Shown here in pieces: positions 11,285-43,479 of a stretch of DNA of 64,000 nt. Made by a program: the position numbers and the translations under genes. Origin of the DNA: Candidatus Doudnabacteria bacterium (GTDB lineage: Bacteria > Patescibacteriota > Doudnabacteria > UBA920 > VMFF01); assembly GCA_963840645.1 (NCBI GenBank), contig CAWIZL010000002.1, positions 337,663-401,662 on the forward strand, given 5' to 3'. Within the stretch, counting starts at the first letter, position 1. Each line of letters starts with the position of its first letter. The notes under the pieces are model-generated. The model had not been told where the DNA came from, made no database searches, and saw nothing but the letters and a program-made list of their open reading frames with translations.

Positions 11285-11519
11285 GCGTCGCCCGCCTTCC
11301 GACTTCGCTTACGCTACGTCGGACAGGACTGGCGGCTCGTTGCCCTGGGTTGCGCCAATCTGCCACTGGCAGCTTGGCGATCGCTCGCCTGCATGGTTTC
11401 CTGCAGGAAACCATTTGCCTCGCTTCAACCCGTTCGAATCCCACACCACCTTCCCCGCATGGAAGTCTGCCGGCCACCTCGCCTGCGTGCTCGCAGTCTC
11501 GGTGACCATCAAACTTCCA
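11285..11519. other. GC-rich non-coding structured spacer (possible remnant of an integrated element or an ncRNA)
   Basis: No credible ORF. It is dense in perfect hairpins: ATGGTTTCCTGCAGGAAACCAT, CTGCCAGTGGCAG, GGCGAgcgaTCGCC and CTGCGtgctCGCAG. It also contains a tRNA-Tyr 3'-end-like fragment, GTTCGAATCCCACACCACC (11431-11449). Confidence 0.4.
11299..11327. repeat. GC-rich palindromic motif copy 1 (CCGACTTCGC..GCTACGTCGG)
   Basis: CCGACTTCGCttacGCTACGTCGGACAGG. Related copies are at 43485-43513 and, inverted, at 51229-51275. Confidence 0.45.
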
Positions 11520-11611
11520 TGGCGGAGAGGGGGGGATTCGAACCCCCGAAAGGTTTTGACACCTTTACCGGTTTAGCAAACCAGCGCACTAGGCCTCTAT
11601 GCGACCTCTCC
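11520..11611 (-). tRNA. tRNA-Ser(GCU), CCA encoded
   Basis: The minus strand folds as acceptor GGAGAGG, 3-bp D stem, anticodon stem CTGGT/ACCGG with loop TTGCTAA (anticodon GCT), long variable arm AAAGG..CCTTT, T arm GGGGG-TTCGAAT-CCCCC, then CCTCTCC-G-CCA. Confidence 0.92.
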
Positions 11612-11640
11612 ACGTGATCTGGTACATTATATCCTGCCCA

Positions 11641-40705: not shown

Positions 40706-40824
40706 TAAACTCTGTTATCATATTTGCACTAACCAACTAAGCATACCTGGAATAAATCCTGCTGCTCTTGTGGCGCAAGCCATCAAGAGACCAGCCTCTG
40801 GGTAGAAGATTAAGGACAAGACCC

Positions 40825-41578
40825 ATGAAAGACGTCAGCCTAGCTGAGCTACTGAAGTCGGGCGCACACTTTGGCCACCAGACATCGCGCTGGAACCCAA
40901 AAATGGCCCCGTTCATTTTTTCGGTGCGCAGCAACATCTACATCATTGACCTAGCCAAGACGCGCGAGTGCCTGCTTGCTAGCCAGCAGTTTGCAAAAGA
41001 TACAGCAGCAAAAGGCGGCACAGTGCTGTTCGTTGGCACAAAGCGCCAGTCAAAAGATCACGTTCGGGCAGCTGCCATTTCGTGCGGCATGCCGTACGTT
41101 GTCACGCGCTGGCTGGGCGGCACGTTCACGAACTTCCGCACCATCCAGAAGACAATTAAGAAAATGGAGAAGTACGAGCAGCTCAAGGCAACTGGCGAGA
41201 CTCTACAAGAACTACACCAAGAAGGAAAGCCTGCTCATTGAGCGCGAGCTCGTGAAGATGCACACACTGTTCGAGGGCATCAAGGACATGCGCAAGCTGC
41301 CAGAGGCTGTCATTGTGATGGACGTCAACTACGACGAGATTGCAGTCACCGAGGCTCGCAAGTCAAAGGTGAAGATCATTGGCGTTGTAGATACGAACTC
41401 AAATCCAGACCTGGTGACATTCCCAATTCCGAGCAACGATGATGCCGTGAAGGCAATCGAGCTCATTGCAGGTGCACTCGCAGAAGCAATCAACGACGGC
41501 AAGCGATCGTACGTGCCAATTCAGCCAGCAGTGCCTGGCCAGACAGTTGCGCCACTGGCAACGCCTGAGGCAAAGTAG
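40825..41578 (+). CDS. rpsB: 30S ribosomal protein S2 (apparent 1-nt frameshift about 41196-41203)
   Basis: MKDVSLAELLKSGAHFGHQTSRWNPKM..., then KATGE/LYKNYTKKESLLIERELVKM...GIKDM in the adjacent frame. Confidence 0.88.
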
Positions 41579-43194: not shown

Positions 43195-43479
43195 GGGTGG
43201 TTAGCGAAGTAGACAAACGCAGCTGACTGTAGGCATTGCAGCTCTTGTGGGAAACTACAGGATGAACTTTCCGGGATAACGGTGAACGCTAAAGCCGCAA
43301 GGCCATGCCAATACCGTGGGAACTCCTGAATTGCAGGGGAGCGCCGTAGAGACTAGATACCGGGGCACCTAACGCGAAAGCTACGGTGAAGATATAGTCC
43401 ATGCCTTACGGAAACGTGGGGAGTCAGTGAAATCAGCCGCCCTGTGCCTTCGTAGGTGCAAATCCTACACCACCCACCA
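43195..43479 (+). tRNA. tRNA-Tyr(GUA) interrupted by a group I intron in the anticodon loop
   Basis: The exons give GGGTGGT-TA-GCG..CGC-A-GCTGA-CTGT|AAA-TCAGC, a long variable arm, GTAGG-TGCAAAT-CCTAC, then ACCACCC-A-CCA. This is the same architecture as E. coli tRNA-Tyr (GCAGA-CTGTAAA-TCTGC, A73). Confidence 0.8.
43231..43429 (+). ncRNA. Group I intron (IC3-like, ~199 nt, no ORF)
   Basis: The core CCGTAGAGACTAGATACCGGGGCACCTAACGCGAAAGCTACGG...GAAGATATAGTCC closely resembles the catalytic cores of the Azoarcus and cyanobacterial tRNA introns. The 5' exon ends in U, the intron ends in G, and the IGS ATT-GCAG can pair with the exon sequences CUGU and AA. Confidence 0.8.

Follow-up and report, generated by a model that had tools for sequence, protein, structure and literature searches.

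Does the tRNA-Tyr(GUA) gene of this Doudnabacteria genome carry a self-splicing intron within its anticodon, and how would such an intron relate to those already known from bacterial tRNA genes? The question is raised by positions 43195-43479 (+ strand) of the window, by which we mean the whole 64-kb stretch of DNA that was analysed. The segment had originally been predicted to be a tRNA-Tyr gene with a group I intron inserted after U35. We report here that it is indeed a tRNA-Tyr(GUA) gene, with a 199-nt group I intron (43231-43429) between U35 and A36. Judging from sequence and comparative evidence, the gene is very probably split at U35/A36 by an intact ribozyme without an open reading frame (ORF), which would catalyse its own removal.

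The segment starts with GGGTGGT and ends with GTAGG-TGCAAAT-CCTAC-ACCACCC-A-CCA; both ends and the coordinates of the original prediction hold, and its core motifs GTAGAGACTAGA, GGCACCTAACGCGAAAGCTACGG and AAGATATAGTCC are present. With its intron option, ARAGORN returns tRNA-Tyr [43195,43479] (gta) i(37,199) from the unspliced DNA, that is, exactly the predicted intron boundaries (43231-43429). In a permissive Rfam search, the group I intron family RF00028 (Intron_gpI) aligned at 43220-43421 over its whole model (1-253) with 37.9 bits, corresponding to E = 3e-8 in the local search and to E = 4.4e-6 for the 64-kb window against all 4227 families. Although this score is below the curated gathering score of 50, it is highly significant by its E-value, and a full-length match at E = 4.4e-6 means that the intron match does not arise by chance. 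Published surveys have used lower cut-offs because the Rfam seed contains no bacterial introns, as stated in the Williams 2020 preprint (10.1101/2020.01.27.920355). Moreover, a profile of the Tyr family (22 homologues, window copy included) gives a single match in the window, with 163 bits and E = 1e-49, and neither ARAGORN nor the family profile nor Rfam found a further copy of tRNA-Tyr or of the intron within the 64 kb. The intron has no ORF, the longest stop-free stretch being 40 aa; its sequence has the appearance of an intact ribozyme that lacks a homing endonuclease. The gene was not recovered at this locus by default ARAGORN or by an Rfam search at the gathering threshold, so that with default tRNA and Rfam searches the genome would seem to be devoid of tRNA-Tyr; the main importance of the finding is for annotation.

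Both exons are encoded on the + strand. The 5' exon (43195-43230), recognised by ARAGORN in spliced and unspliced form and part of a tRNA body that aligns best to tRNA-Tyr, comprises the 5' strand of the acceptor stem (43195-43201), the D arm (43204-43220), the 5' strand of the anticodon stem (43222-43226) and the loop nucleotides C32, U33, G34 and U35 (43227-43230). The 3' exon (43430-43479), identified by ARAGORN and by tRNA alignment, resumes with A36, A37 and A38 (43430-43432), followed by the 3' strand of the anticodon stem (43433-43437), a long variable arm (43438-43451), the T arm (43452-43468), the 3' strand of the acceptor stem (43469-43475), the discriminator A73 (43476) and CCA (43477-43479). 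When 43231-43429 is deleted, ARAGORN recognises an 86-nt class II tRNA-Tyr(gta) with loop CUGUAAA, A73 and encoded CCA, in agreement with the complete class II tRNA-Tyr (loop CTGTAAA) that had been predicted to result from intron removal. The variable region of the spliced tRNA measures 14 nt, and class II structure, A73 and GUA are together the features of a bacterial tRNA-Tyr. In global alignments the spliced body scores 27.5 and 36 against tRNA-Tyr, versus 5.5-11.5 against tRNA-Ser and tRNA-Leu, and its A73 differs from the G73 of the Ser genes compared. Among the metagenome matches listed, intron-less tRNA-Tyr genes are identical to the spliced tRNA at 71 of 86 positions at most; these are distant tRNA-Tyr genes only, and no intron-less allele of the exact window tRNA is found among them. 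Intron-less tRNAs are few in the genome loci, and BLAST of the spliced tRNA against them was uninformative.

The body of the tRNA has a peculiarity of its own. Its T-loop, UGCAAAU (43458), carries G55 in place of the near-universal U55, and its D-loop (43211) reads GUAG where GYGG is usual. The two changes co-occur in 4 of the 22 intron-containing Tyr genes (window, L022, L047 and L090) and in none of the 18 others, and are also seen in two intron-less tRNA-Tyr genes (L237 and L152). At the sequence level this looks like a covariation of the G18-U55 tertiary pair to A18-G55.

The fold of the intron was established from an alignment of window positions 43222-43437 with 21 Tyr-hosted homologues (22 sequences). 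Comparative analysis was used because minimum free energy (MFE) folding of the single sequence was uninformative: with z = -1.35 its energy does not fall significantly below expectation, and the MFE fold lacks the core. The RNAalifold consensus comprises the anticodon stem, P1, P2, P3, P4, P5, P6, P8, P9 and a P9.0-like pairing; P7 was added as a pseudoknot, and pairs were then counted. Over the resulting 57 pairs, 97.0% of cells are paired, versus 31-40% in controls whose 3' partners were slid by 1-3 columns, and in 33 pairs both partners vary. Covariation scores 0.477 in the real alignment and 0.17 in shuffled ones, and none of 500 shuffles reaches any of these measures. Compensatory changes are found in P2 (8 of 8 pairs), P6 (6 of 6), P9 (6 of 7), P3 (4 of 6), P8 (3 of 4) and P9.0 (1 of 2). 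P7 and most of P4 are invariant; the P7 strands are perfectly complementary and, being invariant, uninformative for covariation. The core helices P3-P8 and the P3/P7 pseudoknot, by which a group I intron is recognised, are thus retained through compensatory change. The window copy forms all 57 consensus pairs and differs from the other 21 sequences at one of the 104 columns that are at least 90% conserved, where a U·G pair is kept.

From 5' to 3', all on the + strand, the elements are arranged as follows. P1 is formed by the exon sequence CUGU plus the first intron nucleotide (43227-43231) with the guide UGCAG (43237-43241), enclosing L1 (43232-43236); its splice-site wobble, U43230·G43238, is U·G in 22 of 22 sequences, and the adjacent pair covaries (AU 10, CG 6, GU 5). 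P2 (43243-43250 with 43255-43262) is closed by a GAAA tetraloop, L2 (43251-43254), which is GNRA in 21 of the 22. The 5' strand of P3, UUCCGG (43269-43274), is fully (100%) paired with 43360-43365 across the alignment. The P4-P5 domain (43279-43317), defined by the RNAalifold consensus and likewise 100% paired, consists of P4 (43279-43284 with 43312-43317), P5 (43288-43289 with 43307-43308) and, between the P5 strands, a distal P5a hairpin with a GCAA loop. It is followed by the P6 hairpin (43323-43328 with 43334-43339) and by the 5' strand of P7, GAGACUA (43349-43355), with a bulged A43350, which is the same in 22 of 22 and complementary to 43395-43400. By analogy with the P7 helices of Tetrahymena and Azoarcus, G43351-C43399 would be the guanosine-binding pair. 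The 3' strand of P3, CCGGGG (43360-43365), lies four nucleotides (GAUA) 3' of P7 and abuts P8 (43366-43369 with 43385-43388), whose distal extension ends in a GAAA loop (whole element 43366-43388). J8/7, AAGAUA, and the 3' strand of P7, UAGUCC (43395-43400), form an invariant block (43389-43400) that is part of the RF00028 alignment. P9.0 (43401-43402 with 43427-43428) encloses P9 (43404-43410 with 43415-43421), whose tetraloop L9 (43411-43414) is GAAA in the window and in 20 of the 22. The last intron nucleotide, next to the 3' splice site, is the terminal guanosine, omega G (43429), which all 22 sequences share.

As regards distribution and ESSENTIALITY, the window order prfA-rpmE-rpsB-tsf-(TPR)-tRNA-Tyr-tRNA-Thr-tRNA-Thr-rpmG-tRNA-Trp recurs in other loci, and prfA-rpsB-tsf-tRNA-Tyr-rpmG synteny is shared with the loci of intron-containing relatives. 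Within the rpsB-tsf-...-tRNA-Tyr segment, the intron is present in at least 7 genome loci and absent from at least 14 metagenome loci; since synteny is the same with and without it, the intron is sporadic at an orthologous site. EF-Ts identity to the window is 33-49% in the intron-containing and 50-53% in the intron-less loci, and presence/absence polymorphism of the intron was seen among distant syntenic loci only, not among close relatives. The single tRNA-Tyr that ARAGORN counts in the complete Doudnabacteria genome GCA_016699995.1 is an interrupted one. If the window gene is the sole tRNA-Tyr copy, every tyrosine codon would depend on RNA self-splicing, and it is plausible that splicing is essential for the organism. 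On a metagenome contig with rpsB-tsf synteny (L196, 2017-2155), two intron-less tRNA-Tyr genes stand in tandem, separated by about 117 nt; the number of tRNA-Tyr copies thus varies at this locus.

Insertion between positions 35 and 36 gives the junction CUGU/AAA and the anticodon GUA; 35/36 introns of the Patescibacteria type likewise restore a GUN anticodon. The U predicted to end the 5' exon and the G predicted to end the intron are both present, and invariant in 22 of 22 homologues. From this anatomy we infer that the window intron is catalytic and would be removed as follows. The gene would be transcribed as a precursor containing the intron, which would fold into P1-P9 with the P3/P7 pseudoknot; the guide GCAG (43238-43241) would pair with exon C32-U35, and U35, in its U·G wobble, would mark the 5' splice site. 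The pair G43351-C43399 of P7 would bind an external guanosine, which would attack after U43230. The terminal G43429, placed by P9.0, would next occupy the guanosine site, and the freed 3'-OH of U35 would attack after G43429, joining CUGU to AAAUC and restoring the GUA anticodon. The ligated RNA would be expected to read ...GACUGU/AAAUCAGC..., corresponding to CTGT/AAATCAGC at the DNA level. The internal guide ATT-GCAG had been predicted to pair with both exon ends: pairing with the 5' exon (P1) stands, while pairing with the 3' exon (P10) comes to 2 bp in the window, both U-A, and is not conserved across the 22 Tyr-hosted introns.

The splice sites could be read in another way. If both are moved 2 nt upstream, the 5' exon ends at U33 and the intron at G43427, and the gene becomes a tRNA-Ser(UGA) interrupted at 33/34; in the window the shifted sites likewise have a U and a G, ARAGORN accepts the product as tRNA-Ser(tga), and with Asn and Asp introns both ARAGORN and tFind have been led astray by a 2-nt ambiguity of the same kind (PMC13011429). 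The homologues decide the matter, however, since a G is found at the alternative terminal position 43427 in only 14 of 22 sequences, versus 22 of 22 at 43429, and since U33 forms a Watson-Crick pair with A in P1, the required wobble with G being that of U35 (22 of 22). Together with a tRNA body that is Tyr-like and not Ser-like, and that carries A73 instead of the G73 of Ser genes, the omega G conservation and the U35·G wobble effectively refute the Ser(UGA) assignment. The predicted placement of a group I intron after U35 of tRNA-Tyr is thus upheld by covariation in 22 homologues and by exclusion of the shifted frame.

A correctly placed intron could nevertheless belong to a decaying or silent copy, with an inactive ribozyme and a separate intron-less tRNA-Tyr doing the work from elsewhere in the genome. 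The visible sequence is 64 kb of that genome, no sigma-70-like promoter was found directly upstream of the tRNA-Tyr gene, and other lineages have an intron-less tRNA-Tyr at the same syntenic locus. A silent copy is very unlikely all the same, as the window keeps 57 of 57 pairs, 103 of 104 conserved positions and intact exons, and as an interrupted gene is the sole tRNA-Tyr counted in the complete Doudnabacteria genome. A host protein (a chaperone or maturase-like factor) could also be required for a true group I intron to be spliced efficiently in the cell; many group I introns depend on proteins in vivo, and here P1 has a length of only 4-5 bp and P10 is almost absent. We regard such a requirement as unlikely here, since the compact core has conserved GNRA L2 and L9 loops, as in a self-stabilising fold, and the intron has no ORF. 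Moreover, one Asn and one Asp 35/36 intron of Patescibacteria self-splice in vitro without protein, and precisely, as confirmed by sequencing of the junction (PMC13011429). We thus retain an intact intron, spliced at U35/A36, as the preferred reading.

How widespread such introns are was assessed by scanning species-representative genomes for the core pattern AGAGACTAGATAC-N(12-42)-GATATAGTCC, which gave at least 120 loci, almost all in Patescibacteria MAGs. As ARAGORN accepts many spurious spliced products under looser classifiers, strict rules were adopted for host assignment: U at -1, terminal G, a perfect 5-bp anticodon stem, a 7-nt loop with U33 and a purine at 37, an anticodon straddling the junction, and an ARAGORN-confirmed product. 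Of the 120 listed loci, 40 have an Asp(GUC) host, 23 an Asn(GUU) host and 21 a Tyr(GUA) host, all of them interrupted at 35/36; 3 loci received other, provisional calls outside 35/36 and 33 of the 120 no host call, mostly because they are cut at locus ends. The 84 host-assigned introns listed all measure 184-274 nt, and 83 of them have the guide GCAG 5-14 nt into the intron. Lineages with a Tyr host bear the names Yanofsky-, Doudna-, Morani-, Magasanik-, Peri- and Peregrinibacteria. The nearest introns to that of the window among the matches listed are in Magasanikbacteria (L086) and in a Patescibacteria group (L022), at about 78-80% identity; together with the shared prfA-rpsB-tsf-tRNA-Tyr-rpmG synteny, they point to Patescibacteria as the probable phylum of the window. 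For 67 of the 84 listed introns the nearest neighbour has the same host, versus a permutation mean of 30, so that clustering by host is partial; the Tyr introns do not form one clade, and distances between hosts (0.32) are hardly larger than those within hosts (0.29; 84 listed).

The 84 host-assigned introns listed have GUN-anticodon tRNAs as their only hosts, always in the CUGU context, and no tRNA-His(GUG) host is found among them. The set of tRNAs associated with queuosine and colicin E5 has four members, and the Asp, Asn and Tyr hosts are three of these.

The host tRNA-Tyr had been predicted to be unusual, a premise that fails because a homologous intron is already on record. Nakagawa et al. 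(mSystems 2026, PMC13011429), who surveyed 4,934 complete genomes of bacteria, found 333 tRNAs with group I introns, of which 28 are at 35/36, 19 of these 28 being from Patescibacteria; a Doudnabacteria genome, GCA_016699995.1, appears in their Table 1/S3 with an intron in Tyr(GUA) at 35/36, and homing endonucleases are absent from most such introns. With at least 21 more Tyr-hosted introns from our scan, a Tyr-hosted group I intron is of a kind already described and common in Patescibacteria. Furthermore, the published survey of complete genomes has one such case, and our data, with at least 21 species, suggest that Tyr hosts are far commoner than this among draft genomes of Patescibacteria. 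The earlier Williams 2020 preprint (10.1101/2020.01.27.920355), whose class 'Asn.4Ug' is cited in PMC13011429, extends tRNA host classes from the four classical ones to 21, and the cyanobacterial tRNA paper PMC5733544 contains nothing on Tyr-hosted group I introns.

The published Tyr intron of GCA_016699995.1 resembles that of the window in host tRNA, insertion site, guide GCAG and helices, and the core blocks aactttccgggataacggtgaa, caataccgtgggaac, gccgtagagactagataccgg and ggtgaagatatagtcca are identical. Its score with the family profile is 142.6 bits, and over 185 nt it shares 75% identity with the window intron. It differs in size (192 versus 199 nt) and by compensatory substitutions and length in P2, P5a, P6, P8 and P9, and the unusual T-loop UGCAAAU belongs to the window tRNA. 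Asn and Asp 35/36 introns of Patescibacteria are likewise inserted after U35 in the CUGU context and differ in the host isoacceptor. Two of them, the Asp intron of GCA_023898525.1 (133.9 bits) and the Asn intron of GCA_030583765.1 (128.7 bits), belong to the same compact subfamily, whereas the introns spliced in vitro are distant relatives (Asn, GCA_016700035.1, 19.8 bits; Asp, GCA_001029755.1, 27.9 bits), the former with extra helices between P7 and P3' that are absent from the window intron.

With the classical IC3 introns (Azoarcus tRNA-Ile, Anabaena tRNA-Leu(UAA) and cyanobacterial tRNA-fMet) the window intron shares insertion in the anticodon loop after a U, a length of about 200-250 nt and helices P1-P9 without P5abc or P7.1/7.2. 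J6/7-P7 (GUAGAGACUA) and J8/7-P7' (AAGAUAUAGUCC) are near-identical, and the Azoarcus intron also has GNRA tetraloops in L2 and L9, as the window intron does. The classical introns differ in residing in other tRNAs, at positions 34/35, 33/34 or 36/37, and in P4-P6, where the window has AUAACGGUGAA...AAUACCGUGGGAAC and they have AAAUUCGGGGAA...AAUCCCGAGCCAAGC; canonical IC3 references reach 5-19 bits only against the Tyr-family profile.

These differences bear on the subgroup. The compact IC3 architecture of Michel and Westhof 1990 reportedly has P2 and lacks P5abc and P7.1/P7.2, and the helix map of the window intron has just this composition. In 22 of 22 sequences the invariant GAUA is all that separates P7 from P3', and P3' and P8 adjoin, so P7.1/P7.2 are absent. 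References labelled IA1 or IA2 carry 30-40 extra nt between P7 and P3', and an IA1/IA2-type architecture, with its P7.1/P7.2, is excluded for all 22 Tyr-hosted introns. The architecture resembles the Azoarcus-type IC3. Against labelled references from Table S5 of PMC13011429, the profile gives 41.1 (a Bacillota_A Asn 35/36 intron), 18.9, 16.6, 14.3 and 4.7 bits for IC3, 33.4 and 27.0 for IB3, 33.1 and 13.4 for IA1, and 25.2 for IA3. Of the original assignment to an IC3 core, the compact IC3-like architecture therefore stands, but P4-P6 differ, the best IC3, IB3 and IA1 scores are similar (41, 33 and 33 bits), and published work has no IC intron in this group. Because the profile scores are ambiguous and the published covariance-model classification places no Patescibacteria tRNA intron in IC (PMC13011429), the IC3 label was not adopted.

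We offer, as a speculative and on balance doubtful proposal, that the compact Asp/Asn/Tyr 35/36 subfamily is a distinct IC3-like (not IA) lineage without homing endonuclease, whose spread from one GUN-anticodon tRNA gene to another may proceed by reverse splicing into the CUGU read by GCAG; that its hosts fall within the queuosine/colicin-E5 set could be a hint that the intron is functionally tied to the biology of the anticodon loop, as opposed to a coincidence of target sequence. If true, such a lineage would run counter to the general statement in the literature that tRNA introns of Patescibacteria are IA.

Some observations lie beside this argument. Ten core-carrying loci are labelled as other than Patescibacteria (L103, L034, L061, L100, L104, L008, L044, L049, L078 and L083), the labels being Ignavibacteriota (a 434-kb contig with an Asn 35/36 intron), Bdellovibrio/Bdellovibrionales, Bacteroidetes and 'uncultured Gammaproteobacteria'. 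Either the bins are mislabelled or the intron does occur outside Patescibacteria. One of them, L034 (Bdellovibrio sp.), has an apparent Leu(UAA) host interrupted at 34/35, with the same P7/J8-7 core.

In the window itself, rpsB (S2, 40768-41578) is apparently split by a +1 frameshift near 41195-41205: the ORF 40768-41241 covers the N-terminal two thirds of S2, and the overlapping ORF 40976-41578, read in a different frame, the C-terminal part (LYKNYTKKE...). The shift site, GGCGAG-A-CTCTACAAG, is not a homopolymer; the frameshift may stem from misassembly, or an essential gene may truly be disrupted. Finally, weak sub-threshold Rfam matches to Plastid-psbl-rps4 and sX4 at 11448-11623 overlap a tRNA-Ser(GCU) gene (11520-11611) and are almost certainly tRNA-driven false positives.
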